From Amphiscolops sp. MND2022 (taxonomy: Eukaryota), in contig OZ076409.1 in assembly GCA_964187785.1 (NCBI GenBank), positions 868,001 through 932,000 on the forward strand: a stretch of 64,000 bases of DNA, read 5' to 3'. Position 1 is the stretch's first letter, and each line of letters opens with the position of its first letter. Positions 12,801-43,415 of this stretch are shown here, in pieces. The notes under the pieces were generated by a model, which saw nothing but the letters and a program-made list of their open reading frames with translations, was not told where the DNA came from and ran no database searches. A program made the translations under genes and the position numbers.

Positions 12801-13794
12801 AACGAAAATAATACCCCCAGCACTGTGGAACGCATGTGACTATGTTATTCAGTTCAATTTTGCCATAGCGCACATCCCGGGGGCACAAAATACAGATGCC
12901 GACTATTTGTCCCGATTGGAAGCAGATCCGAAGGACAAATTGGTGATGAAAATTCGCGAAGATATACAAACACTACCAATTGAAATCAATGTCCAATCTG
13001 CAGGAGTGTCGCAAGAGGAACAAATCTTCTACGCCAATGACGACGATGAGACAGAAGAACAGTTGTGGGCAAGAAAAGAAGCAATCAGGAAAAATCCAAT
13101 AACTGATGAGCCCACTGTTACTATACAAACTCTGTCAACAAATTTAGTCAAGCAACACCCCGATATACAAGCCCGATTGAGGAAGACGAACCAGATCATT
13201 ATCGAGCAATCCAAAGATGCAGTACTACAACAATTGAAAGCAAAACTGCTTCATGAGGATTATTCAGAAAATCTGCACCAGGATGCCCGATACAGACATT
13301 ACGCAAACAACCTGGAACGAATTGTACTTAAGGACGAAATCCTGACAAGGCAATACTTTGATGAAATAGGGAACGTTAAATACCATCAAATTCTGCTCCC
13401 GCAACATTTACTCCAGGAATTACTTCAGTCTCTTCATGGGACAGCACACAAACACCCTGGGATTTCAAAAATGCTGCAGGAAGTTCGACAGAGGTATTAT
13501 TACCCTAGCATGGCTTAGTACGTCAAAAAGTGGGTAGAAGGGTGCGAACAGTGTGCCAGAGACAAGAGAGTCCCTAACGCAACGATCACACCTGAGCTAC
13601 TCAACTTGCCCGAATGGGACCTTGGACCTGAAGACGCCATGCAAATCGACCTATTGCCGAATCTTCCCCCAAGTGGAGGATACGAGAATGTCCTAACAGC
13701 AATCGACGTATTTTCCAGATATTTGTTCGCATATCCTCTCACGGACTCGTCAGCAATCAATGTAGCAACAGCGATCATTGACATCATAACCAAA
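9871..13794 (+). pseudogene. pol: Pol of element 1 (PR-RT-RNaseH-partial IN); stops at 12418 and 13516; truncated in the integrase core
   Basis: LIDTGA protease (~10564), YVDD RT (~12085), TDAS RNase H, HHCC zinc finger (HGTAHKH...CEQC), QIDL first catalytic Asp; one frame with two in-frame stops. Confidence 0.92.
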
Positions 13795-15517
13795 CCTGTG
13801 ATGGCACTCTAATAACGACCTCAGCTGGCAGTCAGGAGATTATACCCGGAACCCTACCCACGTTTTAAACAGGTTTATGTTAAACTCTAAAACTTACTCT
13901 CGATGTTTATGTTTGCTTAGAACAGCTACATTTTTCATTATGATACAGTGTGTATTAGTCTGTTAATAATACATTAGACAAGTGAAGTTGCAAGTTGTAA
14001 AATAACAATGCTCATTGTAAATTATAGTTCAACGCAAGCTACTAAACAGCTTAAAGGAAACGAGTTCGAGTGTATGTAGCTTTCAGTCCGAAAGCGTCAC
14101 TTGAGCCTAATGTACCAACCAATCATATTCGAGTATTTCATGATGCTATGCTGCTTTAATCAATTGGCCGGATATGGCCGTTTGTCTTAATGGTGCATTA
14201 ATTAGTTGGAATACTAGGCAGATGGCCGGATTAGGCTTTTCTTTGGTCATTGTTGCAACTTATTGTATTAATAATGTTGTAGTGCTCAATAGTCATGTAA
14301 GCTCTCTATTTACAACTGAAGTTAATAATTAGTGCCTTTACGTTCTTTGAAACAAATAGTACCCCCATACCAACCCGATTATTAGTACCAATCTTTTGGA
14401 CTAATTAGGCTATTCGCTCTGATTGAATTAAAGTCCAATGGCCGATTTAGGACATGTTGTGTTTTGTTTCGTGATTTACGCTAAAGCTACTCGTTTGTTG
14501 CAACGGCCGACATTCGTAGGCACGTGGCAGCATTCCGTGATGAACATTCCTTAGATAGTTGTGTTATGTTATTTGTTTGATGTTTGTTGCCGATGATACT
14601 CAACTATGATGACGTATAGTAATATCGTTGATGTTTTCAAATGGAAAGATATAATCTCGTGACCCTAACAAGTATGAATTCCTAGAGTTCTTTGATAAGG
14701 TGCTAACCACCTCATTTTAACCGTTGTTGTGCCCTAACTTTGTGACTTAAGGAATTTGTAAATTGCGGGTATTATATCAAAATATGTAAATTCCATTCTC
14801 TCGGAAGTATATATACCAACCGTTCCGAGAGGTGGACACTTTTTGCCTTTATGATACTCAAACTTAGTTTGTTCCGCTTTTATAGATTGCAAACCTAGAC
14901 CACCAATAAACTATTCAACCTCGAGTTCTTAATGCCTACTACGAGAAGACAAAAGAAGGCTAGAAAGTCAAGAGGAATAGAAATGCTATCTGACATAGAA
15001 AACCTCGACATTATGTTAGGGGAAAACCATTTCGGTAGAAATGGGAGAGATGAAAGTGTTAGCAGTAATTTTGGCAGAAGGCCTGGTAGTACATCTGCAG
15101 ACGAATTAGAGAATAATGGTGAGAATAGAAACTCAGCCACAAGAGACTTAGGTCCTGATAACAATGCCGATTATGGCCAGATTTCAACTGGAGGTAATTC
15201 TAGTTCTGAGATTAACAAGTTGTCTAGTGAGTTGAACTCGAGATTGTCGAGGGAGTTAGATGATATGATGTGTAGTGTCAATTCCCAGATTCAAAGGGCG
15301 ATTAGTGATGCAATCAGCAATCAGATATTGCCCCAGATCCAGTCCGCCTTAAGTGCCGGATCGGGACACTCGACTCAGAGTAGATGGAACGTTCCGTCCG
15401 AGAGACCGGAAGTATATTCCGAAGGACTGCAAAACAGTAACCCTAAGGACAGTTCAACTAGTAAGCCTAATTGTAATCGCCAAAATGATGGCGTAGTAGA
15501 GTCTAACGCTTACGACA
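13795..15517 (+). repeat. 3' LTR of element 1 (lacks its first ~15 nt)
   Basis: Matches 7030-8753; joined directly to the integrase core. Confidence 0.9.
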
Positions 15518-23048: not shown

Positions 23049-24133
23049 GGACCATGTCGTCTATCGCCCCCCAAACTGCGGCGGGAGGGAATAAGACAGA
23101 AGGTTCAAATATCATTATGTCGACATCGTTTGCGTTGAAATTTTGGTCCAATAAAATAATTGATGTCGACATAATCCTATCCATTACATTGACTGTCAGT
23201 TGAAAGATGCTCATTAGATTTTATAGCGGAAAAAATGAAAAAATTTGAATTGAAATAGGGGCATTTTAATACGATTTTACCTTGTTTCAAACGTGAATTT
23301 CTGCCATTTTGGACGATAATATCAAAAATTATGGTATTTTTTTAAACCTGAAGTGTAAGTATATACATTCATATAATATTCTCTTATTAGTGAAATATTT
23401 CACTAATAAGAGAATAATATATGAATGTATATACTTACACTTCAAGTAAAATGTAAACAAGACGGGAACGTCTAAAGTCGGCGCCATATCTAAGGCTCAA
23501 AAAGCGCAAAAGATTTTTTTTGGAAAAAAATTGAAATTTTTGAAAAATTTTTTTCTTTCAAAAAAGTCGCATAGTGCCGAAAAATGTAAAAGGGGGACCC
23601 TTCTGGATTTATTAACATACATTCCGTTGCAAAATATCAAAAAACTCGAAGGGGGGACCCTTTGGGGACAAAAAAAATTTTCGAGAAAAGAGTCGCACAG
23701 TTCCGAAAAAAACTCAAAGGGGGGACCCTATTGTCACGTCCTGTTTTGTATCCTACGATAAAAATGGACTTACTGAAAGGGGGGACCCTTTGCACTATCT
23801 CAAATGTGCTGCCAGTATTTTAGTAGTACTATATTTAGTAGTTGAACGTTAATTTTAACGTTCGTCGCTTCGAGTCTGTCTTAAATAAAAAAAAAGAAAA
23901 AAAACGAGTGACTGTAATAGTCGGGCTCTTTTCTTAAGAAAAGCGCCGACTAAAAAATACCATACTTTTTTGATATTATTGTCCAAAATAGCAGAAGTTC
24001 ACGAAAGCACATCTTGTTCTTGAATTATTTTTATTCAAGAACAAAATGTGCTTTCGTGTGTGTGTGTGGGGGGTGGGGGGGGTTTGAATTCCCAACAAGA
24101 AGTACATGGGGGGGGGAATAGATGACATGGTCC
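23049..24133. mobile_element. MITE family D copy with a nested family E element (~23455-23956)
   Basis: TIRs present; perfect TSD GCATTTAA. Confidence 0.85.
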
Positions 24134-24649
24134 GCATTTAATTTTTCATCACTCAACTTTTGAACAGCTCTGGCTGTATCGATAGTTCCTTGAGAAAAAG
24201 CTTCTCAAAGTGAAAGTTCAGTACGAACTTTCCATATGTTCTGTACAGTTGCTAGCAACATTGCCATCTTCTAGAACGTTTCCGGAAAGGTTGATACGAA
24301 ATATTTCGAGTACTGTATTCGAGTTTTACTCACATGACACTTTTATGCCCAAGGGCTGGAACGTTTCATCTGAATGCAGGCCTGAATGCAAGGTGAATTT
24401 TTGAAATTTTTTAATGAAGTAAGTAAGTTTCTGGCAGCAAATCTTGTGATCCTAAATTACTGCAATTTGCTTCTAAATCCCATATCGTTACAGACACGAT
24501 CACGGTGTTTCCATATTTTGACTTCTCACCTACGCATCTGATGTAGCCATTACTTCTGAAAAGGCAAGCTAAAGATGACGATACTTTCCAGTTTATAACA
24601 TGACCCAACATTGCTTTAAAATGGCATGATACTACCTTAGCTGCATCCA

Positions 24650-25307
24650 ACAAGACGGGAACGTCTGAAGTCGGCGCTATATCCAAGGCTCAAAAAGCGC
24701 AAAACATTTTTTTTGAAAAATACTTTACATTTTCGAATTTTTTTCTTTCGGAAAATGTGGCACAGTGCCGAAAAATGTAAAAGGGGGACCCTTTGGGGTT
24801 TATTAACATAAATTCAGTTGCAAAATATCAAAAAACTCAAAGGGGGGACCCTTTGGGAACATTTAAAAATTTTCGAAAAAAAGTCGCACAGTGCGGAAAA
24901 AATCTAAAGGGGGGACCCTTTAGGCACGTCCGGTTTTGTGGGTTTCCTTGAATAAGTAAAAAGGGGGTCGCTCTACACTCACCCGGTTTTGTAGGTTACG
25001 TTTAAAAAGTAAAAAACCAAAGGGGGGACTCTATGGAGTCAAAAAATATTTTCGAAGAAAGTCGCACAGTGCCGAAAAAATCCAAAGGGGGGACCCTTTA
25101 GTCCCGTCCGGTTTTGTAGGTTACGTTAAAAAGTAAAAAAACAAAGGGGGACCCGTTGGAATAACTTAGATGCGTTTCCCGGGTATTTGTTTAGTTTCTT
25201 TAGTTGAACGTTAACGTTCGTCGCTTCGAGTCTGTCTTTAAAAAAAAAGAAAAAAACGAGTGACAGTAATAGTCGGGCTCTTTCATTGATAAAAGCGCCT
25301 ACTAAAA
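24650..25307 (-). mobile_element. Family E (Helentron-like) copy
   Basis: Same termini and GGGGACCC repeats. Confidence 0.7.
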
Positions 25308-25314
25308 GTAGAAC

Positions 25315-25726
25315 TGTGATGCCATGATGCATGTCCTCAAAGATTTTATAAATCTGAAATACTCTGAACTCTTAACCGAAGAAATTAGTAAATCTAATTG
25401 AATCTAGAAACTAATTATTCTAGAAGAAACTTCATTTAATAGATCCTGTATCAAACTTCCCTGCTTCATCCTGTTGCTGTCACATTATTAATTGATGTAA
25501 CCTACCCTAGCTAATAGAATATATCTACTTGGAGAAATTGAGAATTCTTCCTAGCAATCAGTCTTCTTCCAGCACTTCAAGAACTGAGATCTCAGAAATA
25601 GATTGTACTCTGAACTAGCTAGCTATAAGATAAAAGATAAGACGACTCTGCTGTTAAAATCTTAGACTTCTTATGTCAATTCTAACTTGTATAAAAGAAA
25701 CAACCACCAAACTTTTTAACAGCTCA
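25315..25726 (+). repeat. 5' LTR of element 2
   Basis: Identical to 43004-43415 except ctAat/ctCat. Confidence 0.97.
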
Positions 25727-25728
25727 AT

Positions 25729-25745
25729 TGGTGCGACCACGAAAA
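25729..25745 (+). promoter_or_regulatory. Putative primer-binding site of element 2
   Basis: TGGTGCGACCACGAAAA begins 2 nt after the LTR; cognate tRNA not assigned. Confidence 0.65.
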
Positions 25746-25879
25746 TTCTTCTTTCTCTCCCATTTATTTCACACATCTACAATTGTTGTACACCTTTCCT
25801 CAACTTTCTCATTCGATATCTCTTTGTTCGACACACAGTCTCTCCACCTCTCAACATTGCAAGCCGTTATTAACTTCAA

Positions 25880-26184
25880 CGTTGCAACCAATTTCTACTT
25901 GAAATTGATCCGTGTTGCTATGGTTCTGACTGCGTTCATCAACGTAATTCCTGTCAGTCATACTTTTTGGTTCTGACTACGTTTCTTCACGTAATTCCTG
26001 TCAGTTAAATTTTTCGTTCCAACCACCTCTGAGTGAATTCGTGTTGGCTTTTTTCTTCTATCTTTCTTTCGTTCCAACCGCAGACGTGCGATACGTGTTG
26101 GCCCTTCTACAGTGCTATCCAGCGATTCCTGCTAGTAAAAATCTCTTTGGTTCTAGCCGCTTGGATCAACTTTAAAGTTGGCAC
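25880..26184 (+). ncRNA. Array of six covarying structured RNA motifs in the element 2 leader
   Basis: Units S-GTT-[P1 5 bp]-[P2 hairpin]-ATN-C-S'-T-[P1'] at 25880, 25922, 25969, 26015 and 26070, plus a permuted unit at 26117-26166; compensatory changes in P1, P2 and S:S'. Confidence 0.75.
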
Positions 26185-26424
26185 ACCTATATAACGCATC
26201 TTTTTCCATAACATCATTATAATACTTTTCTTATTCTCTCTTCTATACTACAAACCACATACAAAACTCCTTTAAAACTCTCTTACGGATCCAAATACAT
26301 AACAATTAAGATATATAACACATATATCACACCTCTCTTTACATTACTTTCATTTTTCATACACCTATATACAACAAAATTTTGTATAACTTCTTTGACA
26401 CACTCTTATAGAACTTTATTGTAC

Positions 26425-26547
26425 ATGCCGCCTTCAGTAGACATTGTAGTCAAACTCATTGTCTGCTTTTGATTCTTTGTTGCTATCGTTGCCGGTCTTG
26501 CACTTTTTCTAGACAAATTTTTAATTTCATTCATACCAAAATTTTAA
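26425..26547 (+). pseudogene. 40-codon hydrophobic uORF with an in-frame TGA
   Basis: MPPSVDIVVKLIVCF*FFVAIVAGLALFLDKFLISFIPKF. Confidence 0.35.
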
Positions 26548-26566
26548 AGTACAACCTTTTCCTTCT

Positions 26567-26806
26567 ATGTTAACAAGTATAGTACTACCTCTTTTTGGAC
26601 TACTTAGTATATACCACACTTTCAAAATACTTATCCAATATATACAAAACCCACTTCTTCTTTTCATAAGTATTGTACTTACTATTTTCATACAAGTTAT
26701 TTTCATAGATCAAATTTTACCATATAATTCACAATTCAATACAAAATATCTTCTTTTCCGATACATCTATCCTTTATGGCAATCCTATTGTACTAATCAA
26801 ACCTAA
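26567..26806 (+). CDS. 79-aa small membrane protein upstream of gag
   Basis: ATG start, two hydrophobic stretches, stop 9 nt before the gag ATG. Confidence 0.45.
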   Translation: MLTSIVLPLFGLLSIYHTFKILIQYIQNPLLLFISIVLTIFIQVIFIDQILPYNSQFNTKYLLFRYIYPLWQSYCTNQT

Positions 26807-26815
26807 TATCATATA

Positions 26816-29800
26816 ATGCTCCCCACTCCATTTACAGTCTCTAATGATAAAAGACAAAATCGATCTCTTATACAATATGTAACACCTTTTCTACAAAATA
26901 TTATCTTTCAGTACACTAACCCACTTCCATTTGAAACAGAACCCCATATATTACACACTATTCCATTAATACGAGAACATTGTGATTCCTACTTATATTA
27001 TATCCAATATAAAACACTTGACATAACACCATCACAAACTCCTTTCCAAGTTATTTTTAACCCTGTTAAAGGAATAAACTCTGGAACATTTTATAGAACT
27101 ATACACCCACAGAATATTACACTTTCTATACAAGATGTTTTTCGCACATACATGCAAAAACTCATTGAATTCAATGAACACCAAGACATACCACCTTATC
27201 GTCCTTCTCATTTACAAGAACTTAATCACTTATCTGAATATTTCGAGGTCCCTGATCTTGACACAAAAGTTCAAAGACATGGTAACCCTCATTATTGGCT
27301 ACAACGAGATATATTACAAATAAAGAACTTCGAGTTCAAATTCTTTACCAAAATTACCCTTACAGATGACACTATACCTCAAGTCAAAATTTTTACACAT
27401 TTCTTATTAAAATTCTTTAGATTTAACTACCAATTACTTTGGGAACAGAAAGACCAAAACGCTTATACTAACTTCCCAAAAGCATTAACAGATATAGAAC
27501 TCTTACCATACATCATAGACAATAAAAACAAACACTCACATTACATAGATCTTACTTCATTAAATGTTACACATTTTGAACAAATAAACCTAGATCACAA
27601 CTTTGTACTTGAACATTCTGAAACGTCAGATAGTAGACCTTATATTACATCTGATACTTTACATCAAACAACTCTTCAAACACAAACCTTTAATGTTGAA
27701 CCTCCATATATAAGACAACAATCAGAACAATCAGAACAAGAATCTATAACACAAGAAACACTTGTTCATCTTTTTCAAAATCCTGATTCTCCTCAAGAAC
27801 AATCACCCCAGCCACCACAATCACAAATCTTTGATACGCGACAACCAAATCCGTCTGAAACACATACACTTCCCAATACATCAGAACTTTCTGACGAAAC
27901 AGTACAAAATCCACAAAGTTTTACAATAACTGAGGACTCCAATCTTATAACAATTCCTACCCACAATATCCTCCAACGGACTACAAATCAGAATCAAGAC
28001 AACCCTTCAAATGTCATCACCGACAATACTTCTGTTTTATCCCCATATAATACTAATATTACACAACCCTCTCAGACACAAATACTACCTCCTCGAAATT
28101 ATGATCCACCCCCTATTCCTTCCCAATTTTCAGCTCAAATAAATACTCATGTCTCTCCTCAACCAAGTTCATCAAATACACACTCTATTACACAGAACAA
28201 TAATACAGTACATTTTCAAACACCAACTCCACCTTCATCTTCTGAAATACAAACTTCTACTTATACTCCAGCTCAAACTAACCCAGTACAAACTACACAG
28301 CCTACTTTAAATATTAACACAATTCATTCTAACCCGCCCTCTAACTATACTACAGCCAGTCATCTGTCTCGACCTCCATTACAACCTATATTAACTGACC
28401 CATTATCATACAATCTTACCAGCACCAATCTAAGTCATACCCAACAATCTCAAATAAACTATAACACACACAACCAATTAAACACTCTTTCTTCCCAGCA
28501 TACATCCAATACAATCCCTCCTACATTACAAACCTCTCACTTTCAAATATCAAATCCTCCTTCAACAACAATTAGAACTAACCCTCACTTTCATAATACT
28601 TCAATTATACCTTCAACTAATATTTCAAACCATCCTACGTATAATACAACACCTCCATCTACTATGTCTCATAACACTATGTCACATCCAACATATATTA
28701 ACTCTTCTACTTCTATATCAGAACCCATTAAACCTTTTGATGGACTCGATCACAACTATACACCTGAAGAATATTTACAACATATTGAGTCACGTGTTAC
28801 ATTCTCTTTAGGTTTACAACCTACCGCAGAACATGAATATAAATTTTGGCACGCTCGTCGCATGGCTTTCATACAATGCTCTTTAACAGGTACAGCACTA
28901 AGCTGGTACATCCGTTTAAACGACACTTATAAACATGATTGGCACGCTTTTGTACAAGCTTTCAAAAAACAATTTTCCTCACAAAAGAACGCTTATTATG
29001 CTCAAGTTGAAGCCCTTAACTTAACAAAGAAAGATAATGAAACAGTACGTCATTTTGCACTCAAAGTCCAACAACTGGTTGAAAAAGGCTGGTGTAATGA
29101 GAATGCATCTACTATAAACCTTAAATGTAATGAAATCTTTACAAAAGGACTTCCAAAAACCCTTAAAGATTTTGCAAACAAAAGACAAGTAAAACACACC
29201 TCTACTGTTCTAGAACCTTCGATTCCTTTTCATACTTTGGTAAAACTTGTTGACGCTGAAGATATTGCAAACGACAAAATTAGAACACATGATCTTGCAC
29301 TTGAAATAAACAATATTACAAAACAATTGAACACTCGAACCTTAGATCACCCATCTCAAGAACAACTTATGTATACACAACCCAAAGACCCAAATAACAA
29401 AAATAAACCTGCATATAAAAAATATTGCTCCTACTGTCATAGAACAAATCACTCCATTTCTGCTTGTTTCAAAAAACAACGAGATGATCAAGATAAACGA
29501 GAAGCATATGCTCGATCAAAATCTCCACAAAAATCATTCGTTCAGTACTTTCGTTCCCCTTCAAATGACAAAACAAAACACTATGATAATCGATATCGAA
29601 GTCGAAGTACTTCACGAGACAACTCTTATAACCAAAAATATTCACAAGATCGATACCGTTCTACATCTCGAGATAGAGACCGATTTCGTTATGATAAAAG
29701 TACTACTCCTCCACATTACTCCAGATCAAGATATGACACATATAAACGTGATTCTCGATCTTACCGTTCTCCTTACAGATCTTCTTATAGATCTCCATAT

Positions 29801-30085
29801 AGACAAAATTCTCGTCCTAGATACAGATCACGCTCTTATTCAAGAGATGACAAATTTAACAAATACACAAATTCATATAGACCACCTTCTAGACCAAGAA
29901 ACTCTCGATTTTCCAGATCCAGATCACATTCCAATTCCAGAAATAAAATCAATATAATACAACAACAGGAACAAACTGATCCTATCAAATTTGAGGTACA
30001 CATGTATCACCCAACAGCAATGGCAAATGCTGTCACATCACAAGTTGGTTTTATACTCTATATGTACACACCCCATCAAGTATAG
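26816..30085 (+). CDS. gag: Gag of element 2 (~1080 aa): N-terminal extension, S/T/P/Q/N-rich linker, capsid, CCHC knuckle, RS-rich tail
   Basis: IKPFDG...SLTGTALSWY...FKKQF capsid motifs; CSYCHRTNHSISAC at 29426-29467. Confidence 0.9.
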   Translation: MLPTPFTVSNDKRQNRSLIQYVTPFLQNIIFQYTNPLPFETEPHILHTIPLIREHCDSYLYYIQYKTLDITPSQTPFQVIFNPVKGINSGTFYRTIHPQNITLSIQDVFRTYMQKLIEFNEHQDIPPYRPSHLQELNHLSEYFEVPDLDTKVQRHGNPHYWLQRDILQIKNFEFKFFTKITLTDDTIPQVKIFTHFLLKFFRFNYQLLWEQKDQNAYTNFPKALTDIELLPYIIDNKNKHSHYIDLTSLNVTHFEQINLDHNFVLEHSETSDSRPYITSDTLHQTTLQTQTFNVEPPYIRQQSEQSEQESITQETLVHLFQNPDSPQEQSPQPPQSQIFDTRQPNPSETHTLPNTSELSDETVQNPQSFTITEDSNLITIPTHNILQRTTNQNQDNPSNVITDNTSVLSPYNTNITQPSQTQILPPRNYDPPPIPSQFSAQINTHVSPQPSSSNTHSITQNNNTVHFQTPTPPSSSEIQTSTYTPAQTNPVQTTQPTLNINTIHSNPPSNYTTASHLSRPPLQPILTDPLSYNLTSTNLSHTQQSQINYNTHNQLNTLSSQHTSNTIPPTLQTSHFQISNPPSTTIRTNPHFHNTSIIPSTNISNHPTYNTTPPSTMSHNTMSHPTYINSSTSISEPIKPFDGLDHNYTPEEYLQHIESRVTFSLGLQPTAEHEYKFWHARRMAFIQCSLTGTALSWYIRLNDTYKHDWHAFVQAFKKQFSSQKNAYYAQVEALNLTKKDNETVRHFALKVQQLVEKGWCNENASTINLKCNEIFTKGLPKTLKDFANKRQVKHTSTVLEPSIPFHTLVKLVDAEDIANDKIRTHDLALEINNITKQLNTRTLDHPSQEQLMYTQPKDPNNKNKPAYKKYCSYCHRTNHSISACFKKQRDDQDKREAYARSKSPQKSFVQYFRSPSNDKTKHYDNRYRSRSTSRDNSYNQKYSQDRYRSTSRDRDRFRYDKSTTPPHYSRSRYDTYKRDSRSYRSPYRSSYRSPYRQNSRPRYRSRSYSRDDKFNKYTNSYRPPSRPRNSRFSRSRSHSNSRNKINIIQQQEQTDPIKFEVHMYHPTAMANAVTSQVGFILYMYTPHQV

Positions 30086-33000
30086 TACAAAGAGACAACC
30101 CATCTAGACTAGAAATTGCATTCCTTCTAGATAGCGGTGCTTCTATTTCTGTACTCAATTATCCAACATATATAACTCTTACAAAACTTCTCGATATCAG
30201 ACCAAATCACACCTCTGATGTTGGACCAACTAGAAATTCCAAAACACTAACTGTTGCAAACCAAACTGAAGTTCCTATTTTACATTACGCAAATATCATT
30301 CTGAACACCACTATTGACGAAAACTCTCGATACTTTTCAGTACCCTTCGCAGTAGCTTATATTAAATACAATATCCTTGGTACACCATTCTTCGAAGACA
30401 ATATACAAAACATAAACATACAAGACTTTACACTCGAATTTAAATACCAATCAAAAACACACCCAAATTATGCAAAATTTACAACACTTCTATCTAAAGA
30501 TTATCCATACTTCTCTTACATTTATAGAATTAACTCAAAAACTCAAATACGTTTAAAACCCAAATCTTCCAAAATTGCACACTTTCCTATCCAAAATTAT
30601 CATAATCTTCATTTTACAACTACACCACAAAACCACTTCTTTCCTTCAGTACCTCATACCTATTTTGCTACCAAATTCCGTACAACTTTCAATTTTATTG
30701 AAGTTTTTACAGACGACAAGCCAGACATATGTGCAACTATTATTCAAAACACTTCAAAACATATTGCAACGCTACCTACAGGACATATTGGCTACATCGA
30801 AGTTCCAATTACTAATGAAAGACCTAAATTCTTCCAAGTTAACGACATTAATACTTTAATACCAAATGTTACTCATACTTATCATCCTGATATTACCGAA
30901 CCACTTCCACAAACCAATTATATTGTACAATATGATGATCCTACAACCCCTCCTCCACAATTCTCTTTACATCAAATTTATATGACAAATGACAACATTC
31001 CACACCAAACTTCTTCCCTATATAACGTTCAACCTACTTCTCATACCTCAGAAAAACGCATTTTCCCTTCTCTTCCATATACTTCTGAAAATCTGAAATT
31101 TATTAACAAATTTAACTTTCAATTTTCCGACCTTACAGATTCAGAATACATTACTCTTTGCAATATGCTCCTCAAATATAAAACATGTTATGCAACTCAT
31201 AAAAACGATGTTGGAAAAATTTCAACACCCTTTCGTATCCGACTTAAACCAAATGCTCAACTTATGACACAACGTCCTTCCAAAGTCCCTATTCATTATC
31301 GAGACAAATTAAATGCACTTCTCAAAGAACTTGAAAAATATAACATTATTAAACAAATTGGTTCTTCTCCTCAAGACAAACCCGTTTATGGCACAACTTA
31401 TTTAAATCCTCTTATTATAATCCCCAAGGGAGATACAATAAAATGTGTATTAGACGCTCGACATCTTAATTCCAATACAGAACAGTCTGATGAATCTTGG
31501 CCTATTGAACCTCTTGCTCCACAACTAGCACGCGCAAACAAAAAGTACAAATCTGCTATTGACCTTATGTATGCCTATGCACATACAGCTCTTGACGAAG
31601 ATACTATAAAACTTACTAGCTTCTCTTCAGGAGACAAACTTTTCGCTTTCATACGAGGCTTTTATGGTCTCAAAGGACTACCAAATTTCTTTACAAAACA
31701 AATGTCTACTTTCTTTAAAACTCTTATAGAACAAGGTTTCGCTCTTGTCTACATTGACGATATATTACTTTTATCCGACTCTAAAGAACATATGTTTCAA
31801 CTCATAGAACAATTACACATTATCAGTACAAAAAATAATCTTAAACTAGCCCCTGAAAAATCCTTTTTCATGCTCCTCAATGTCAAATTCCTTGGACATG
31901 AAATTGGTTACAATACAATTAAACCAATTCATTCAAAAATTGCAGCTATTCATAAGATCCCTTCTCCAACTGGCAAAGTTGCCCTAATGAGTTTCATTGG
32001 CGCACTCAATTTTTACACTAAATTTATTGAAAAACTACATATTAACCTCAAACCGTTTTACGATCTTTTACATGAAAACACTCCTTGGAAATGGACAGAC
32101 GAACACGAAAGTCTATTTCAAAAACTTAAAATGTCTCTCACTTCTGAAACAGAATTAACAATACCGAATACGAAACATCCATTTTTCATTACAGTTGACG
32201 CTTCCCTTATTGGATTAGGCGCTGTCTTATTCCAGTTAAATGAACAAAACAAAATGAAAGTCATATCGTACAACTCTCGTATACTTAGCCCACAAGAACA
32301 AAAACTCTCCACACTTGATAGAGAACTCCTTGGTATAGTACACGCACTTCAAATCTATGAATTTCTTATCATAGGTTCTCCACATCCAATACACATTTTC
32401 ACTGATCACAAACCTTTATTACATTGTTTTACAAAGAAAGGTAATCTCAGCCCCCGTTTCTATAGAGCTCAAATGCAATTGACAAAATTTTCAAAACTCA
32501 AAATAATTCACACCCCTGGAAAAAATCTCTCTGTTGCCGATATGTTGAGTCGCTCATTCACAAAAGCTGAATTACAACTTAACCAATTAAAACATAAACA
32601 CCTCCCACCACAAATCGATTTTGCACTTTTACAAGATAACACTCTTAAACCTGTACATTACTTAATAAAACACGAAGAAATTTTACCCCATCAAAAACAT
32701 GACTCCCATCCAATTCTTGCTGATTATGGTACAGATCAATTCTCTATTCGTATCAATGATAAAGGAAATGACATTATTGTAAAACCCTTACACTCTTTCT
32801 CATTCAAATCTGTAACTCCTTTTCAAACCAAATTTAAGACACCTACAAAAAAGAACAACAAAACCCTTCATCAACAATCTCTCTTACTTAATGATACTGA
32901 CGTTACAAGTGACGACGAAGATCATATTTACACCAGAATTCCAAAATCTGACTCTTCCTTCTCACAAGATACTACATTACAAACAGAAAATTATTCTACT

Positions 33001-35010
33001 CTTAAACAACCAAGTTACAACACCTCACAGAAATCAATTTCTGCAATAAATGTACAACCAAATTTACCATCTCTCACACACTGTCAACAAATTATACCTT
33101 TTTATGATACATCTTTCTTTAAGTACAAAAACTATTTTCAAGGTTTCTTCCTCCCCGATGATTACTCATTAGACATAAAAACTCTTCAACAACAACAATC
33201 TCAAGATCCGGTTCTCAGAACTGTTTATTCTTGGTTACTAAACAATGAAAAACCCGAATTTATAACACCTCTTATCACTGGTACTCCATTTCTACATGTA
33301 TATTACAAAAGATTTTCACAACTTTTCATTGATGAATCCACTAATCTTATTAGTCTGTACATTACAAACCCCACTGTTAATAACCAATCCTCTACTCCAA
33401 ATTTTGTACAAGATACTATTCGCATATGCCTACCTTTTCGACTATTTAAAACTGTCTTTAACAAACTTCATGAACATTCTCACACTGGTATGAAAATCAC
33501 CTACAATACATTCAAACAATGTTACTATATCCCATTCCTTGAAAAATGGCTTTCCTTTTTCATACATGACTGTATTGAATGTCAACGTAATAAACACTTC
33601 AATATGAAAATTCAAACTGCTCCTACACAATCATTTTCAGAACATGCTCCATCTTTCAACCATAGAATCTCAATGGACACTAAAGGACCTATTAATCCTC
33701 CTTCTCATAATAAATCCTATATACATGTAATAATTGACGCTTTTAGTCACTTTGTTGTTACAGTACCCATCAAATCAAACAACGCAAAGACTGCTATCAA
33801 AACTCTCCTACACCATTGGATTATTAAATTTGGACCACCCATATACCTTGTCACTGATCGTGGATCAGAATATGTTAACAAAGAAATGGCACATCTTTGT
33901 ACACTTATGGGAATTCGTCATTCTCCTAGAACAGCTTATTCTCCTTGGACAAATGGCCTTGTTGAAGTACAAAACAGAAATCTTGGTACTCATCTTCGAA
34001 TGTTCCTACATGACACACCTAAAGATTGGGCATTTCAAGTCCATATGTACGCTTATGCACATAATTCACAACCACTTTCAGAACTCAATGTTTCACCTCA
34101 CGAAATTGTTTTCCATACTAGACCCAGAATACCCCTCACATTTGATTTAAACCTTAATCGAGATACCTCCAAGACATGTATTTCACGTTATTGTTCTCAA
34201 CTCCCTGAACACTCTCACTATGATAAATCAGACTTAAACCCATTCTTCTATAAAACACTCTCAAAACCCATTCCCCAATGGTTTCTCGCTGTAGAAACTG
34301 CTATGTTACAAATTTACTCTACAGTCTACGAAAACACTCTACGAAAAATTAACTCACACGCATACATTACAAAAACTTACCACGAAGGTAAACCCCTTCC
34401 CATTGATACCTTTGTTTTAAAACGCAATTTTACACATGTTCACTTTTCAGACAAACTCAAACCCCTTCGGATTGGACCATATAAAATTCTTGACAGACTA
34501 TCAGACGTCACATATGCATTACTTGCACAAGATGGCTCTATAGTACACGTTCATAGAAATCATTTAATCCCATATTACCCTAAAGAACCACTCTTGTATC
34601 CACATTTGCGTAATTTTATGCGCTTTTCAGACACAACTCAAAACCAAATTCCACAAATTACCAGATATGCAAACAGTGATTCTTCCCCGTTTAACTCTGA
34701 TGAATCTTTGTCTGAAGAAGATTCTCAAACATTTATGACACCACCATCATTTAGTACATCCAATCAAAATACACCATCTATAACATCCAATGACAAGTCT
34801 TTACCTTCCTCAACCAATGACAACTCCTTATATAAACATATAATTAATACCCCTCACACTAATGTCCCTAGTGACAGATCGAGACACCCTTCTAACAACC
34901 AAACAACTTCACTTCCTCCTCTAATTGACAGAACCACAAAAACCACTTATAAACTGCGACAACAACCCAAATTAGATTATAGACTTTTTATTACACCTTC
35001 CCAACTGTAA
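29995..35010 (+). CDS. pol: Pol of element 2 (PR-RT-RNaseH-IN-GPY/F), in the -1 frame relative to gag
   Basis: Frame is stop-free from 29995 (manual translation): FLLDSGAS at ~30130, NILG, YIDD (~31750), TVDAS, HEHSH..CIEC, D-D-E (MDTKG/TDRG/LVE), RIGPYKI. Confidence 0.95.
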   Translation, partial: GTHVSPNSNGKCCHITSWFYTLYVHTPSSIVQRDNPSRLEIAFLLDSGASISVLNYPTYITLTKLLDIRPNHTSDVGPTRNSKTLTVANQTEVPILHYANIILNTTIDENSRYFSVPFAVAYIKYNILGTPFFEDNIQNINIQDFTLEFKYQSKTHPNYAKFTTLLSKDYPYFSYIYRINSKTQIRLKPKSSKIAHFPIQNYHNLHFTTTPQNHFFPSVPHTYFATKFRTTFNFIEVFTDDKPDICATIIQNTSKHIATLPTGHIGYIEVPITNERPKFFQVNDINTLIPNVTHTYHPDITEPLPQTNYIVQYDDPTTPPPQFSLHQIYMTNDNIPHQTSSLYNVQPTSHTSEKRIFPSLPYTSENLKFINKFNFQFSDLTDSEYITLCNMLLKYKTCYATHKNDVGKISTPFRIRLKPNAQLMTQRPSKVPIHYRDKLNALLKELEKYNIIKQIGSSPQDKPVYGTTYLNPLIIIPKGDTIKCVLDARHLNSNTEQSDESWPIEPLAPQLARANKKYKSAIDLMYAYAHTALDEDTIKLTSFSSGDKLFAFIRGFYGLKGLPNFFTKQMSTFFKTLIEQGFALVYIDDILLLSDSKEHMFQLIEQLHIISTKNNLKLAPEKSFFMLLNVKFLGHEIGYNTIKPIHSKIAAIHKIPSPTGKVALMSFIGALNFYTKFIEKLHINLKPFYDLLHENTPWKWTDEHESLFQKLKMSLTSETELTIPNTKHPFFITVDASLIGLGAVLFQLNEQNKMKVISYNSRILSPQEQKLSTLDRELLGIVHALQIYEFLIIGSPHPIHIFTDHKPLLHCFTKKGNLSPRFYRAQMQLTKFSKLKIIHTPGKNLSVADMLSRSFTKAELQLNQLKHKHLPPQIDFALLQDNTLKPVHYLIKHEEILPHQKHDSHPILADYGTDQFSIRINDKGNDIIVKPLHSFSFKSVTPFQTKFKTPTKKNNKTLHQQSLLLNDTDVTSDDEDHIYTRIPKSDSSFSQDTTLQTENYSTLKQPSYNTSQKSISAINVQPNLPSLTHCQQIIPFYDTSFFKYKNYFQGFFLPDDYSLDIKTLQQQQSQDPVLRTVYSWLLNNEKPEFITPLITGTPFLHVYYKRFSQLFIDESTNLISLYITNPTVNNQSSTPNFVQDTIRICLPFRLFKTVFNKLHEHSHTGMKITYNTFKQCYYIPFLEKWLSFFIHDCIECQRNKHFNMKIQTAPTQSFSEHAPSFNHRISMDTKGPINPPSHNKSYIHVIIDAFSHFVVTVPIKSNNAKTAIKTLLHHWIIKFGPPIYLVTDRGSEYVNKEMAHLCTLMGIRHSPRTAYSPWTNGLVEVQNRNLGTHLRMFLHDTPKDWAFQVHMYAYAHNSQPLSELNVSPHEIVFHTRPRIPLTFDLNLNRDTSKTCISRYCSQLPEHSHYDKSDLNPFFYKTLSKPIPQWFLAVETAMLQIYSTVYENTLRKINSHAYITKTYHEGKPLPIDTFVLKRNFTHVHFSDKLKPLRIGPYKILDRLSDVTYALLAQDGSIVHVHRNHLIPYYPKEPLLYPHLRNFMRFSDTTQNQIPQITRYANSDSSPFNSDESLSEEDSQTFMTPPSFSTSNQNTPSITSNDKSLPSSTNDNSLYKHIINTPHTNVPSDRSRHPSNNQTTSLPPLIDRTTKTTYKLRQQPKLDYRLFITPSQL

Positions 35011-35111
35011 TCTGGTCATTCTCCCTGTTGGCTTACTCAAACCTAGTCACTCTGGTTGAATGAATGTTGAATAAATGAAATAAAACCCATAACAAGTTAT
35101 CTTAAAGATAA

Positions 35112-36368
35112 CCTGTTGAAAACACTTCAACAATCCTGGATCCTCCCTCTGATATCTCTCCATCAGCTCCAAGTATTCCTTCTACACCTGAATCTTCAGT
35201 ATCAAACAGCATAAACTCTAGTAATGTAACTCCTACTACTCCTTCTAAAAGACCCAGATCATACATCTCTGAAACCTCTTCTTCTTCACTTCTTCACAGA
35301 CCACCTATAACCGAAATTCCTATAAACACTCGTCCCCAACAAACTCCTATTAACACTCCTATTATACACATACCAAACCCTGAAAGTGTTGAACAATACG
35401 TAACATACAAACACCCTACAGCTATCAAAACTGTTAGACTCCAACCTCAACTTAATCTAGTACAAATTCCTGATACTGAATATACGAAACTACCTCCATT
35501 AAAATTACCTTCAGAACTTAGCACTACAGAACTTAGTACTACTTCTTCAAAACTTTATCCACCCTTAAAACCTCTTCGAAAACCCTCTACATCACTCTCA
35601 AATCTCTTAGACAATAATACTTCTGACTACGCTCCATCACAAGACACAAGCTCATTTTTTGTACCCAGACATAGATATAATCTTCGTGATCTTCCTTCAC
35701 GTAGACTTAGTACAGACACTTCCACACTCAATTTTTCCGCTCTTTCTAGCAATTCTGCATTACGACTTGTAAGACAACACGCTCAACCATTGTCCTCTGA
35801 CCCATCATCTTCAGAACTCTTTCAATCTCCTTATTTTACTTCCGGTTTTGAAACCGCTTCATTACTCTCATCTAATCCACAAACTGCATTCCTATCAGGA
35901 GATCTTTTTTCACAAGTAGTAATCCCTACTCCTGTTCCTGCACATATTAGACTACCTGAATACTATACTGCAGAACATTCTAGACCTCCAACCCCAAATT
36001 TTGCTGATTATCCACTTCGAGTCGATGGTATAACTATCTACGACCCACAAAACGATCCTCGATTTCCAATTCTCGCAGAACGTTTTATTAATAACAACGA
36101 TCTCTTATCTCATAAACGTAAAGAAACAGAACTAAAACGTCTCCAGACACCAAATTTAGAACTTAAATTTGAAGTCAAAGTCAAATTTCAAGGATTAAAT
36201 CCTCATCCAATATTTCACGTTTCTAAAATAGAACATAAAACCTCTCCTGCTCCTTTTGAAGTAGTACATATTGAATTTGAACGCGATCTTAATATACCCA
36301 CTATCACATATGGCAATATTGTCTTCTGTAACCCATACTCTGGTCTCAAATATAAGACATCCTTTTAA
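35112..36368 (+). CDS. Met-less ~418-codon open frame (P/S/T-rich N-part, globular C-part), unknown product
   Basis: Stop-free from 35112 to 36368; the ORF track shows only the part after TTG 35790; codon style matches gag and pol. Confidence 0.6.
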   Translation, partial: PVENTSTILDPPSDISPSAPSIPSTPESSVSNSINSSNVTPTTPSKRPRSYISETSSSSLLHRPPITEIPINTRPQQTPINTPIIHIPNPESVEQYVTYKHPTAIKTVRLQPQLNLVQIPDTEYTKLPPLKLPSELSTTELSTTSSKLYPPLKPLRKPSTSLSNLLDNNTSDYAPSQDTSSFFVPRHRYNLRDLPSRRLSTDTSTLNFSALSSNSALRLVRQHAQPLSSDPSSSELFQSPYFTSGFETASLLSSNPQTAFLSGDLFSQVVIPTPVPAHIRLPEYYTAEHSRPPTPNFADYPLRVDGITIYDPQNDPRFPILAERFINNNDLLSHKRKETELKRLQTPNLELKFEVKVKFQGLNPHPIFHVSKIEHKTSPAPFEVVHIEFERDLNIPTITYGNIVFCNPYSGLKYKTSF

Positions 36369-39014
36369 ATCCTACACAACCTCTTATCTAACACCTATAA
36401 TTCTTCTCTTACATTTATTTAAATCTACCTTTTCCATACCTATAGTACTCCCTGATACAGAAAACTATCTTCCATCGGATGACCCGAATATTACAAATCT
36501 CATGGTTTCTCATTATGACTGTGCAAAACAACACAATCTCAGACAATTTAATCTACTTAATGTAAAACAATGCACTGAAGCTCCTTCTGACATTAAACAT
36601 GCAAGTGTTAAAGCCCGTGTATATGTCCGCGCAAAAGCTAAACGTATCAAAGCTTTCAAATGTGTTGCTTATGCAAAGAAAGAAAGGAAAATATGCTTTC
36701 AAGGATCTGTCAAATACCGTCGTGTTGATCGTACAGTATGGAATCATAATACATTACCGCTTCCTGTTACTCTTGATCCGGTAGAATGTAAAAACATTAT
36801 AAGACATTTAAATGGTACAAATGATAAAATATTGAACAACCTTAACTACAACAAAACATTTACACTCTTAGAAGATCATTACTTTCAAGAACGTTTAGAA
36901 CAATATCAAACTCCTTTCACTGTATATCAATTGAACAAAATGTATACAGGTACATTTACATTCATGCCTGCTGATAAAAACTGGATATATGACCCTACAA
37001 AAAACCCTTATCATAACTGTCCTGCTCATCATCAATTCGAAGTCAACTTAGTTAGTTGGCGACTAGAAGTTTCCGAAATAGAACTTACATATGATGACAC
37101 ATCAAATGACATGATAATTGACATACATTACCCTGCTATTTTGCAGACGGCTTCTGTAAACCCACTACAAAAAATCCTTTTACTCTTGTTTGGTTTAATG
37201 ATGATTACTGTCTAATTTTTACCCTACAAGACTTTATTGGACGTATGACTAAAATTGAAGATAGATATTGGATTGAAACAGACTCTTTTGTACATTCTCC
37301 ACATCCAGTAAAATCTCAAACTGCTTCTGGCATAAAAGGTACAGAACATCCTTATGTTCATGCCCCTCATACACAACATCCAAATAACCCAAGTCTTTCA
37401 AGATTTGAAGTTTTTCCTACAGCACAAACCTTTTGTGGTAAACCAGACCCTCTCTATTCTACACAATACTCAGACCTTTTTGTTACATACACTGATGGTT
37501 TTAATATGCATACAGGACAACCTAATCCTCATTCCATAATTGATGAGTATATCTCTGGTAAAATAGTATTGGACACTTCAAATAACAAATTTGTATTCCC
37601 TGCATTAAATGTATCAAACAATTTCGCTACCATTGATTATGATGCACATATAAACACCAAAATTGACTACACTATTAATCATGTTTTTCGATCAATGATA
37701 GTACAAGAACTAAATACTCTTCATACAATATGTGAACTAGAACGAAATCAACTCCTTACAATACTCGCAATGTCAGTACAAAATCCTCAACTTGCTGGTT
37801 TCCTTCTAACTGGTAATAGAAGTAACTTCTTATACGTTGAAGGCTCAACCGCCTGGCTTTATGACTGTCCTCATTTTTTATCTCCTTTATACAAAGCAGA
37901 TAGATGTTTTGACCGTATACCCATACATTTTAAAGATACCTTAATGTACGTTGATCCTATTACAAGACAAACTTATGATTATGCTACACCAATTACATGC
38001 GATAATAATCCGCGTAACATTATTGAACTAGACCCTGATTCAGATGATCAAGACTTTTACATTCTTGGACCTGAACCTATCAAACGTAAACCTCCACTAA
38101 TGTTTACTCCCTCACAAATCAAAACTACAATACGCCCTAATACTTTTACAGCCCAAGATGCTGGTATATATTCAAATGCAGAACTTGATCAATTTTGGAA
38201 CCGTATTTTATTTTCTAAACACTCTGATTCTACACTCCAATTGCTAGGTAAAGCTCTTAGTTATTCATTCATTTCATCTAATACTCCAAACTACGATGCA
38301 GATTCCCCTCAAGACTCTGGTAATCCTTACAATACATTACGAATAGGACTACATGATAAACTCTTGAACTTAACCCCTCTTTTCACACCTACATGGTTCT
38401 CTGATGTTTTTATTGCACTTTTTGGATACCCTTGTTACATTCTTACACAATGTGGCATATACTTTTCTACATTTCTTTTTATACAAGCTACTCTTACACT
38501 TATTGTTAAACTTTACAAAACAATATCTATTAAATATAATCTAAAAAATAATATTACTTTACTTAGTTCTATTGCACATGGTTTTTTTAATGTTCTTACA
38601 GCACGAATGGTCAGTGACCTACATGAGGCTCAAAACAAAAAACCCAAAAGTACACTTTCCAAATCCAAATCTTTAGATAACTTTATTGACACTTCTCCCA
38701 ATTTAATTAACCATTCTACAGATGTTACTTCCCCTCCACCTTTTTATACTAAACGATCTAACAAAATTCAATTTCCTAAATTTAACTATTTTCCGAAACG
38801 ACACCACAATTCTCACCATAAAACGACTCCACTTCCTTTCTCTTCTGTCCAACATCCCCCACTTCCTAATTATACTCATAAAAACTTTCACTCGAATGAC
38901 AATCTAACTACTCAACATGACACTTTAATTAACAATTCTGTCACTTCTACTACGGATACACCAATTAAAATCTATTCACGAATAAACTATCCTTTTCCTC
39001 CTCCATCTTCTTGA
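36310..39014 (+). pseudogene. env: Env: class III (chuvirus/herpes gB-type) fusion glycoprotein, ~900 aa, frameshifted at ~37121
   Basis: Signal-like LTPIILLLHLF; VSHYDC; LPCYFADGFC...TLVW (read in the second frame from 37122); FCG..LYSTQY; INTKIDY; ICELER..LAMSVQNP..G; CFDRIPI..YVDPITR..PITC; C-terminal TM and tail. Confidence 0.8.
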
Positions 39015-39263
39015 ACTCTCTCCCAGTTCTTCTGTAACTCTCTTCCAGAACACTCGCCTGCTATTTCTTCACAATTGCTACTCCTCCACCACTTGAAACT
39101 CTTGCAGAAATTCATCTTCCTCAATCTAATAATACTTCTCTCATAATAACCATCTTCAAAAACTCTTCAACTAAAGTTGACAAATCCACTCGTTAGTGTA
39201 ATTTATAGTACTTTAACTTTAAAGTGCTAAGGCCTCTTGGAATAGATAACACTGTGACTGTTG

Positions 39264-40607: not shown

Positions 40608-41016
40608 ACTTCTCTACAGGTAATATAAAGTTTTAAATTTTCTTCTCTGGTACATTCTATGGTACAGCTGTGGCACATTTTACAAGGTATTTTCATTTTT
40701 ATTTAACGAAAATCCTTACTTTTGAATGAAATCTCAGGACTGTTTTTTAAGTACACTAATTTTTCCTACAGTACATGTCAAAAACTAACTATTTTTTACT
40801 CAAAACACTACAATACAAGACATACAAGACAATATAAAATAACACTACATATGGTACATTATAGCACCCATTTTTGTTGTACATCTTTGACTTGATATTG
40901 TCATTCTTCTTACACTTCCTTTGTTTTAGAAACATCCATTCTTCCTTCTCCTTCATCCAAATTCTTTCAGAACATCCCAACTTCTCTTTCTTCGTATTCT
41001 TCAAACTCTCGTCATA

Positions 41017-41469
41017 ATGGCTCCAAATGCTGAAACAAACGACATTCTAACAATGACTTCAGAATTTTCGAAAGTGCATAGTCTCAAAGCCGCCATATTT
41101 CATACCATGGCCTTCAAACTCTCGCTTGAGATTCACAAAAACAAAATTACGCCAAAATGCCTCATCGCTTTCTTAAAAGTACTCTACAACGTCACGCAAA
41201 TAAAGAAAAAGAAAATCACTTTCGAGCAATATTCGCGAATCCATCTTCAAGGACCTAAAATTGCCATTTGTGAAACGGCATCTAATGTTGTTTTCGTCCT
41301 CAATTCATCTTTCACGTCAAAGGATCAGTACTTTCGTACTGCTATCCAAGAAGCTACAGATGCTTTTAATAATATGTTACAAGATTTCGGGTATACTCAA
41401 CAACTAGAACTTTATGACCCGATACAACATCAACCTCATCCTCCATCGCAAAACTCTCTCTTTCAATAA
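41017..41469 (+). CDS. Orphan accessory ORF (150 aa) of element 2
   Basis: ATG in a good context (ataATGG), protein-like composition. Confidence 0.6.
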   Translation: MAPNAETNDILTMTSEFSKVHSLKAAIFHTMAFKLSLEIHKNKITPKCLIAFLKVLYNVTQIKKKKITFEQYSRIHLQGPKIAICETASNVVFVLNSSFTSKDQYFRTAIQEATDAFNNMLQDFGYTQQLELYDPIQHQPHPPSQNSLFQ

Positions 41470-41691
41470 TCTCTAACACAAACTTCTACTTACTTCTATT
41501 TCACTCTTTGACTACATTTCGTCTCCAAATCCTTCATCTTCTTTCGATGATGCTTCGAAATGTGGTTGATGATTACTTCCAAGAACTCCTACACATGCTG
41601 AAACTCTTCACTTCACCCACCCACGATGGTCAACAACATCCATCTACACTTTGGGTTCATCGACGTTACCAAAAATTGTCCTCGTCATCGT

Positions 41692-43003: not shown

Positions 43004-43415
43004 TGTGATGCCATGATGCATGTCCTCAAAGATTTTATAAATCTGAAATACTCTGAACTCTTAACCGAAGAAATTAGTAAATCTAATTGAATCTAGAAAC
43101 TAATTATTCTAGAAGAAACTTCATTTAATAGATCCTGTATCAAACTTCCCTGCTTCATCCTGTTGCTGTCACATTATTAATTGATGTAACCTACCCTAGC
43201 TCATAGAATATATCTACTTGGAGAAATTGAGAATTCTTCCTAGCAATCAGTCTTCTTCCAGCACTTCAAGAACTGAGATCTCAGAAATAGATTGTACTCT
43301 GAACTAGCTAGCTATAAGATAAAAGATAAGACGACTCTGCTGTTAAAATCTTAGACTTCTTATGTCAATTCTAACTTGTATAAAAGAAACAACCACCAAA
43401 CTTTTTAACAGCTCA
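43004..43415 (+). repeat. 3' LTR of element 2
   Basis: 411/412 identical to the 5' LTR. Confidence 0.97.

Follow-up and report, generated by a model that had tools for sequence, protein, structure and literature searches.

In a stretch of 64,000 nucleotides from Amphiscolops sp. MND2022 (contig OZ076409.1 of assembly GCA_964187785.1, positions 868,001 to 932,000; hereafter the window, with all positions counted from its first letter), an intact Ty3/gypsy-like retroelement of 18.1 kb (25315–43415) is flanked by long terminal repeats (LTRs) and carries an env-like gene. Here, we show that the leader of this element contains, between the primer-binding site (PBS) and gag, a tandem row of five small RNA units followed by a sixth, permuted one, and that the architecture of the fold is maintained by compensatory change through the divergence of subfamilies, in the + strand RNA. 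From sequence features we infer, with a probability of roughly 0.4, that the region 25880–26184 may serve as a packaging signal, as a family-specific platform to which the element's own Gag binds in a multivalent manner.

The five units, U1 to U5 (Table 1), are 32–39 nt long, form a row that starts 141 nt 3′ of the PBS and are separated by pyrimidine-rich spacers. All five have the same minimum free energy (MFE) fold on the + strand, consisting of an unpaired 5′ SGUU, a 5-bp helix P1, a P2 hairpin of 3–7 bp stacked on P1 and a bulge of 6–7 nt, on the 3′ side only, with the consensus A-W-N-C-S-U. On the − strand a mirror image of this fold appears for U1 and U3 only, and U2, U4 and U5 differ. 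An earlier note on this DNA, made from the letters alone, had described five tandem units of common architecture just downstream of the PBS; checked against the window sequence, its positions and sequences are all correct, and the shared fold and the placement hold as well. Three of the five single units are clearly more stable than shuffled sequences (z for U1 to U5 −2.68, −1.98, −2.09, +0.38 and −0.28). A loose descriptor (GTT, a 5-bp P1, a P2 of at least 3 bp and the bulge) matches the window 37 times on the + strand and 90 times on the − strand; the descriptor alone is therefore not specific.

The row stands out as a structured island in an otherwise G-poor and weakly structured leader. 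In the internal region of the element (26000–43000, + strand) G makes up about 10% of the bases, with a GC skew near −0.45 and most 2-kb bins between −0.27 and −0.50, whereas G reaches 17.7% in the array island against 6.4–10% elsewhere in the element RNA. Because the element RNA is so strongly depleted of G, the structured island is easy to delimit.

To what extent is this fold kept in relatives? Distant subfamilies were found with a degenerate pattern that leaves out the common P1 sequences, and 11 arrays (L061–L071) were fetched in this way; a twelfth match (L072) was rejected as a chance match in unrelated sequence. A covariance model of eight pairs was made from 33 of the 37 distinct intact units from the scan, omitting two units that deviate in G-U-U and two near-duplicates, and searched with filters off. 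Over both strands of the window it finds U1–U5 only, at E 3.6e-9 to 4e-7 (these being training sequences), with the next-best match at E 0.64. Over L001, L031 and L061–L071 its matches at E<=0.05, with damaged units counted, number 71, of which 63 are distinct; these 63, from the window and 12 diverged loci, underlie the counts that follow. The L061–L071 arrays hold 5–7 units each, with the new P1 versions UCAAC/GUUGA, ACAAC/GUUGU and AUGAC/GUCAU and with P2 versions that include CAC/GUG, CACC/GGUG, CACU/AGUG, CGCA/UGCG and UACG/CGUA. An older subfamily, whose copies are 86–95% identical, has three CUGAC-type units among its six.

Pairing is present in 92.7% of the stem cells, against 25.8–47.0% when the partners are slid. 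For covariation the score is 0.491; slid partners score no higher than 0.095, and 0 of 500 shuffles reach the observed value. The first P1 pair is CG in 45 units, UA in 7, GC in 4 and AU in 2 (unpaired in 5), the second is CG in 32, UA in 25 and UG in 4, and the third is AU in 37 and GC in 24, while pairs 4 and 5 are nearly invariant as A-U and C-G. At one P2 position the pair is A-U in 31 units, G·U in 13 and G-C in 7; 3–6 units with a 7-nt bulge have P2 one column off in this alignment. Over the eight stem pairs G·U fills 24 cells and A·C 11, which favours the + strand, that is, the genomic RNA. The compensatory variation of P1 and P2 that the earlier note had claimed, and proposed to check across family copies, is thus borne out, with several Watson-Crick states at P1 pairs 1–3; so is its strand preference, which it had read from a G·U pair in U2 that is indeed present (G25932·U25945).

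The covariation bears on whether the repeats might instead act as DNA, as a row of transcription-factor, enhancer or insulator sites. In Drosophila gypsy, likewise an env-bearing Ty3/gypsy element, the Su(Hw) array is a row of tandem repeats at the same place, just 3′ of the PBS, and both the unit number, which varies from 5 to 7 between subfamilies, and the conserved short core words GTT and CGT/CCT-GT would suit such sites. However, the Su(Hw) array works at the DNA level and each of its repeats has one conserved word, and here it is the base pairing that is conserved: a double-stranded DNA site needs no paired halves, the stems vary yet stay complementary, every P2 forms a hairpin although its sequence is unrelated to those of the other units, and G·U exceeds A·C. 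We consider this explanation very improbable.

The unpaired bases are more constant than the stem sequences. On the 5′ side, G at position 2 is found in 61 of the 63 distinct units and U at positions 3 and 4 in 62 each; in the bulge, the first base is A in 58, the C is kept in 61 and the last base is U in 62. Invariant unpaired bases combined with variable stems are typical of a protein-recognition or tertiary motif. The near-identical copies are not very informative, though in keeping with constraint: among 31 near-identical copies, all five array polymorphisms whose minor allele occurs in at least 3 copies lie in loops or spacers, which make up 71 of the 222 array positions (chance 0.32^5, about 0.003), and in two same-family contigs from one other run of unknown kind the differences lie only in spacers or upstream of the array. 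Against this background, a neutral tandem duplication of a hairpin-forming segment, without a function of its own, seems very improbable. It would account for U2 and U3, which are recent duplicates (85% matches, 47-nt period), for the drift in unit number between subfamilies and for the unremarkable folding energy, but not for pairing that survives sequence change in lineages with strongly diverged leaders, for the nearly invariant unpaired bases, for common polymorphisms that avoid stems, or for the analogous, different array maintained in a sister family (see below).

The structured region is longer than first noted, as it extends to 26184 and includes a sixth, permuted unit in a terminal domain just 3′ of U5 that is conserved in 12 lineages. 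The consensus fold of this domain has 18 pairs, 2 of them with changes on both sides. Within a closing helix GUGC/GCAC, the helix AUCCAGCG (26117–26124) / CGCUUGGAU (26158–26166), with one bulged U, is followed by a 6-nt 5′ bulge AUUCCU (26125–26130) and a hairpin GCUAG (26131–26135)/CUAGC (26153–26157) whose loop ends in GGUU (26149–26152). A second hairpin, CAAC..GUUG (26167–26180), was read by eye and has compensatory changes, e.g. CAACUC/GAGUUG. AUUCCU-GCUAG matches the 3′ half of a unit and GGUU-CUAGC its 5′ half; since the arrangement of two helices, bulge and GGUU is the same with the loop at the other end, the domain contains a circularly permuted unit. That the motif letters are nearly unchanged in another connectivity speaks for a role of these letters as a three-dimensional or recognition unit, and the permuted unit, which has no entering 5′ tail, argues against mechanisms that require a free 5′ tail.

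Does the 5′ tail pair with the bulge? The earlier note had seen that the 5′ dinucleotide varies with a dinucleotide in the bulge, CG with CG and GG with CC, and had concluded that this implies a 2-bp pseudoknot. The pattern stands: it is CG/CG in U1, U4 and U5 and GG/CC in U2 and U3, and 56 of the 63 distinct units have a 5′ S that is complementary to the bulge S (CG 35, GC 21, other 7). The pseudoknot itself is not established by it, as the two states match the unit class exactly, NNAAC units having CG/CG and CUGAC units GG/CC; with only two S states that coincide with unit class, the change counts as one evolutionary event rather than five independent ones. In a genome-wide search for class-switched units, with the reversed pattern as control, compensated YCAAC units (GG..CC) gave 4 matches against 6 in the control, of which 1 resembles a unit, and one-sided ones gave 19 against 4 (GG..CG) and 61 against 3 (CG..CC, 31 of the 61 from an unrelated repeat); for CUGAC units the compensated form (CG..CG) gave 0 against 0 and the one-sided form (CG..CC) 13 against 1. 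The compensated class-switched YCAAC unit is thus a single copy, though above the expectation for random decay. An H-type geometry is possible, with UU across the deep groove of the 5-bp P1 and one U across the shallow groove of the 2-bp helix; a helix of only two pairs would have to be supported by tertiary contacts or by protein.

A possible tail-bulge pairing across a short helix, together with tandem occurrence, recalls H-type pseudoknots and the exonuclease-resistant RNAs (xrRNAs) of flaviviruses, which likewise occur in tandem; an xrRNA has a ring around its 5′ end and stalls Xrn1 at a defined site. Each unit could accordingly be imagined as an exonuclease-blocking pseudoknot, or else as a self-cleaving ribozyme, that yields 5′-shortened RNAs, the 2-bp pairing being in our estimate sterically possible and its CG/CG or GG/CC letters being present in most units. 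We regard this as highly improbable. The candidate pairing comprises 2 bp only, the change behind its covariation occurred once and cannot be separated from unit class, compensated class-switched units are nearly absent, and the permuted terminal unit keeps the motif without an entering 5′ tail. Moreover, xrRNAs reside in the 3′ untranslated region (UTR) and the array in a 5′ leader, where a cut or stall would lose R-U5-PBS, needed for reverse transcription. The array also matches no xrRNA or ribozyme of Rfam: a search of window 25000–27000 with Rfam 15 (both strands, E<=10) gave only two chance hits to small nucleolar RNA models, both outside the array, and six diverged arrays gave 0 hits at E<=1.

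No Rfam family fits the array at E<=10, and thus neither the hatchet ribozyme or the riboswitch pseudoknots nor any of the hammerhead, hepatitis delta virus, twister and pistol ribozymes that the earlier note had set aside. With a fold supported by covariation, its suggestion that this retroelement leader carries a folded RNA module not described before is upheld. Full-text literature searches gave no description of such an array, and in the main text of a survey of env-bearing metazoan Ty3/gypsy elements the words "tandem", "UTR" and "packaging" occur 0 times (PMC13524379). The module is a new RNA motif, but one of a known general kind, the cis-acting structured leader element.

The units have also been compared with the tRNA T-arm, which has a 5-bp stem closing a 7-nt loop U-U-C-R-A-N-N. 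The earlier note had likened the conserved letters to a T-arm that an insertion has split. They can be read in this way, as S-G-U-U...A-N-N-C-S′ with G-U-U and A-N-N-C enclosed by a complementary pair, the GUUCCAACC of CCAAC units fits the word GUUCNANNC, and the T-loop region of the primer tRNA reads GTTCGAGCC. The likeness fails, however, in stem, loop and word, as at most two pairs (S1–S′ and G2–C) stand against a 5-bp stem, there is no 7-nt loop and GUUCNANNC fits CCAAC units only, failing in GCAAC, CUGAC and UCAAC units. P1 and P2 moreover occupy the place of one loop base (R57), and the A58 equivalent lies directly after P2, five base pairs off, so that the chain geometry would probably not fit; ARAGORN finds no tRNA-like gene in the window. 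As the units are similar and not complementary to the T-arm, they cannot pair with it. A role in RNA dimerization could be sought in GUUGCAAC of U1, an 8-nt palindrome, but this is missing in older lineages, where the first unit is CCAAC or a variant. T-arm mimicry and a dimer site at the U1 palindrome were both rejected, and that the units mimic a T-arm, help to place the tRNA-Met primer or serve dimerization seems to us to have very little chance of being right.

A sister family in the same genome, with a Pol that is 61% identical and the same 11-nt PBS word, has an array of a different module at the same place. Four tandem units lie about 70 nt 3′ of its PBS (L073:1441-1658, contig 10), of the form GUAC-UA-hairpin a-U-hairpin b-GUAC (in letters, (U)GUAC-U-AAUCAC..GUGAUU-hairpin b-GUAC(A)), a three-way junction with a GUAC closing stem. 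Two of the units fold into this junction, with z −1.41 and −3.20; the other two, cut before the 3′ GUAC, showed the two hairpins only. Covariation is seen in hairpin b (CGAC/GUCG, CAGC/GCUG, CAGU/ACUG), and the module pattern has 1095 matches in the genome against 0 for the control, in rows of 3–8. Here, too, the array is richer in G (15%) than its surroundings (3.5–7%). The covariance model of the first module finds nothing in the sister leader (best E 0.72), and Rfam gives four chance-level matches to the sister array at E<=10, all far below gathering scores. By eye, the two modules have the words CAC..GUGAUUCG in common, and GUUCCAACCAC is similar to GUACUAAUCAC; a common ancestor is possible. 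A third family, with about 36% identity in Pol, has a 19-nt PBS for the same tRNA and is not G-poor (G 18–20%).

What would such rows of modules bind? Retroviral packaging signals lie between the PBS and gag, and the array is found in this interval; it is also a repetitive structural motif, with five units and a permuted one, and with unpaired G-U-U and A..C.U kept in 58–62 of the 63 units. Its position, the many sites and a Gag with a zinc knuckle point to Gag as ligand and to packaging, as do invariant unpaired bases that include G in an RNA that otherwise avoids it. The strongest pointer is the replacement of the module in a sister family with the same host and the same primer tRNA, since a different module at the same place is to be expected if the ligand co-evolves with the element. 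Under this proposal, each module would be one binding site for the element's own Gag, with its CCHC zinc knuckle and basic Arg/Ser tail, and the helices would fix the geometry of the conserved unpaired bases, including the rare G residues. The row would then form a multivalent, family-specific packaging signal, on which several Gag molecules would be placed side by side on the unspliced RNA, so starting its capture into particles.

Among the closest parallels is the retroviral psi, which has the same position, with several stem-loops that expose conserved unpaired bases, including G, and which is bound at several sites by the NC domain of a CCHC Gag. Unlike psi, the array would be a signal built by regular tandem repetition of a single small module whose bulge sequence is fixed, it belongs to a Ty3/gypsy-like element, and its binding is predicted; no dimer-initiation hairpin was identified in it. 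Packaging signals built from repetitive motifs have examples among alphaviruses and coronaviruses. In many single-stranded RNA viruses they are stated to consist of short, repeated, structured motifs (PMC8206606). Those of (+)-strand RNA viruses, which are thought to be bound by capsid protein in a co-operative manner, resemble the array in that each short structured repeat keeps an unpaired element, and they differ from it in belonging to another virus class, in having no sequence or structural likeness to the units and in often lying inside coding regions, whereas the array is in the leader. For multivalency, the HIV-1 leader is stated to bind about two dozen NC copies (PMC7395439).

Several points weigh against a Gag platform. 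The whole 246-nt array is no more stable than shuffled sequences (z −0.40; other strand −0.42), and with so unremarkable a folding energy the case rests on common architecture and covariation. There, the 33 units of the model were preselected as intact and the covariation alignment was fitted to this model, and the units are paralogues, mostly in decaying copies within one genome, so that independent events are far fewer than the cell counts. The 1-kb leader of the third family holds no tandem array, and as that family has the same primer tRNA, arrays are no general requirement. No convincing splice donor was seen by eye between the PBS and the array. Finally, family-specific modules would also be compatible with another factor than Gag, from the host or the element, that evolves fast.

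In the main rival reading, the row would be a platform for a host RNA-binding protein that serves export (cf. the constitutive transport element), cap-independent or upstream-frame-controlled translation, RNA localization or stabilization. The same structural facts apply to it, and the 1.09-kb leader between PBS and gag ATG, four upstream ATGs 3′ of the PBS, of which one (25920) stands directly before U2, and the pyrimidine-rich spacers would all be in keeping with such a role. A conserved host factor, however, should keep one motif, and the sister family has a different one and the third family no array; the classical export element, furthermore, is near the 3′ end in simple retroviruses. On balance we consider a host-factor platform unlikely.

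Gag binding may be combined with the candidate pseudoknot in a more specific model. In this model the unit is a compact, undescribed fold in which S-G pairs with the bulge C-S across P1 and UU lies in the P1 groove, a fold that tolerates permutation; the element's own Gag would read the rows as an "address code" that is specific to the family, and the module would have been exchanged between sister families, a pseudoknotted hairpin against a three-way junction, with row and position kept. We hold this extended version to be doubtful. If it were true, co-resident retroelements would be kept from packaging each other's RNA.

To our knowledge, almost nothing is known of how RNA is chosen for packaging in invertebrate env-bearing Ty3/gypsy-like elements. 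The module described here is small and sharply defined (32–39 nt), repeated and supported by covariation, and the natural circular permutation and the module swap in the sister family provide built-in controls. If Gag does bind it, the array would offer a simple system for multivalent RNA recognition and for packaging specificity between co-resident elements; if Gag does not, it is still a new structured RNA motif, with about six copies per element and thousands of candidate family copies.

Table 1. Features of the array and of the retroelement that carries it, in window positions.
Feature	Position	Strand	Basis or remark
Target-site duplication GAAC	25311..25314, partner 43416-43419	+	read directly from sequence
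5′ LTR, 412 bp, TG...CA	25315..25726	+	411/412 bases same as 43004-43415
PBS TGGTGCGACCA	25729..25739	+	complement of 3′ end of tRNA-Met(CAU), gene in same genome
U1 C-GUU-GCAAC-[CAAUUUC/GAAAUUG]-AUCCGU-GUUGC	25880..25918	+	MFE fold; model E 4e-7
U2 G-GUU-CUGAC-[UGCGUU/AACGUA]-AUUCCU-GUCAG, G25932·U25945	25922..25957	+	MFE fold; model match
U3 G-GUU-CUGAC-[UACGU/ACGUA]-AUUCCU-GUCAG	25969..26004	+	MFE fold; model match
U4 C-GUU-CCAAC-[CAC/GUG]-AAUUCGU-GUUGG	26015..26047	+	MFE fold; model match
U5 C-GUU-CCAAC-[CGCA/UGCG]-AUACGU-GUUGG	26070..26101	+	MFE fold; model match
Conserved terminal domain, just after U5	26112..26184	+	RNAalifold on 12 lineages
gag open reading frame, ATG at 26816	26816..30085	+	Retrotrans_gag domain
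Gag CCHC zinc knuckle CSYCHRTNHSISAC, then basic Arg/Ser-rich tail	29426..29467	+	
pol (reverse transcriptase, RNase H, integrase)	29995..35010	+	Ty3/gypsy type
env-like open reading frame	37122..39014	+	Pfam Monjiviricetes_fusion (viral fusion glycoprotein), E 3.1e-19
3′ LTR, 412 bp	43004..43415	+	pair of 5′ LTR

As to the element as a whole, the N-terminal 260 aa of Gag are 40% identical to those of the sister family, and the long frame is therefore translated from 26816. The nearest named relative of its Pol is from a cestode, with 33% identity. In the 1.07-Gb genome, the leader sequence has 2746 first-look candidates, and 40 that were scored are 98–100% identical. Pairs of arrays 1.3–3.6 kb apart were considered as short array-bearing non-autonomous derivatives and rejected, being rearranged or truncated copies. 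The ATG at 25920 opens an 18-codon upstream frame (25920–25976) that runs through U2 into U3; in our own reading an ATG before U2 recurs in most diverged lineages, with a frame of varying length.

Between pol and the 3′ LTR, 35112–37215 and 39258–41469 hold more long open reading frames (418, 316, 449 and 179 aa), which are without a Pfam family or have a weak fusion-glycoprotein match only. Near the 3′ end of the internal region, at 41683–41904, there are five to six tandem 37-nt repeats, with no excess folding energy (z +0.90). On either side of the element lie satellite-like repeats (23450–25310 and 44800–49230) in which the words AAAGGGGGGACCC and GTCGCACAGTGCCGAAAAA occur, so that the element is embedded in a repeat-rich stretch. 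A second, unrelated Ty3/gypsy-like element, at 7400–14600 and with direct repeats 6765 bp apart, encodes gag with a CCHC knuckle, protease, reverse transcriptase, RNase H and integrase; nothing like a unit occurs in its leader. The pattern by which the primer tRNA was looked for matches the genome 18 times, 4 of them at the tRNA-Met(CAU) gene and 7 in a dispersed repeat, one copy of which lies near 38538724 on contig 2; this repeat is about 70 nt long, has CUGAUGAG and GAAA between complementary ends and resembles a hammerhead ribozyme repeat.

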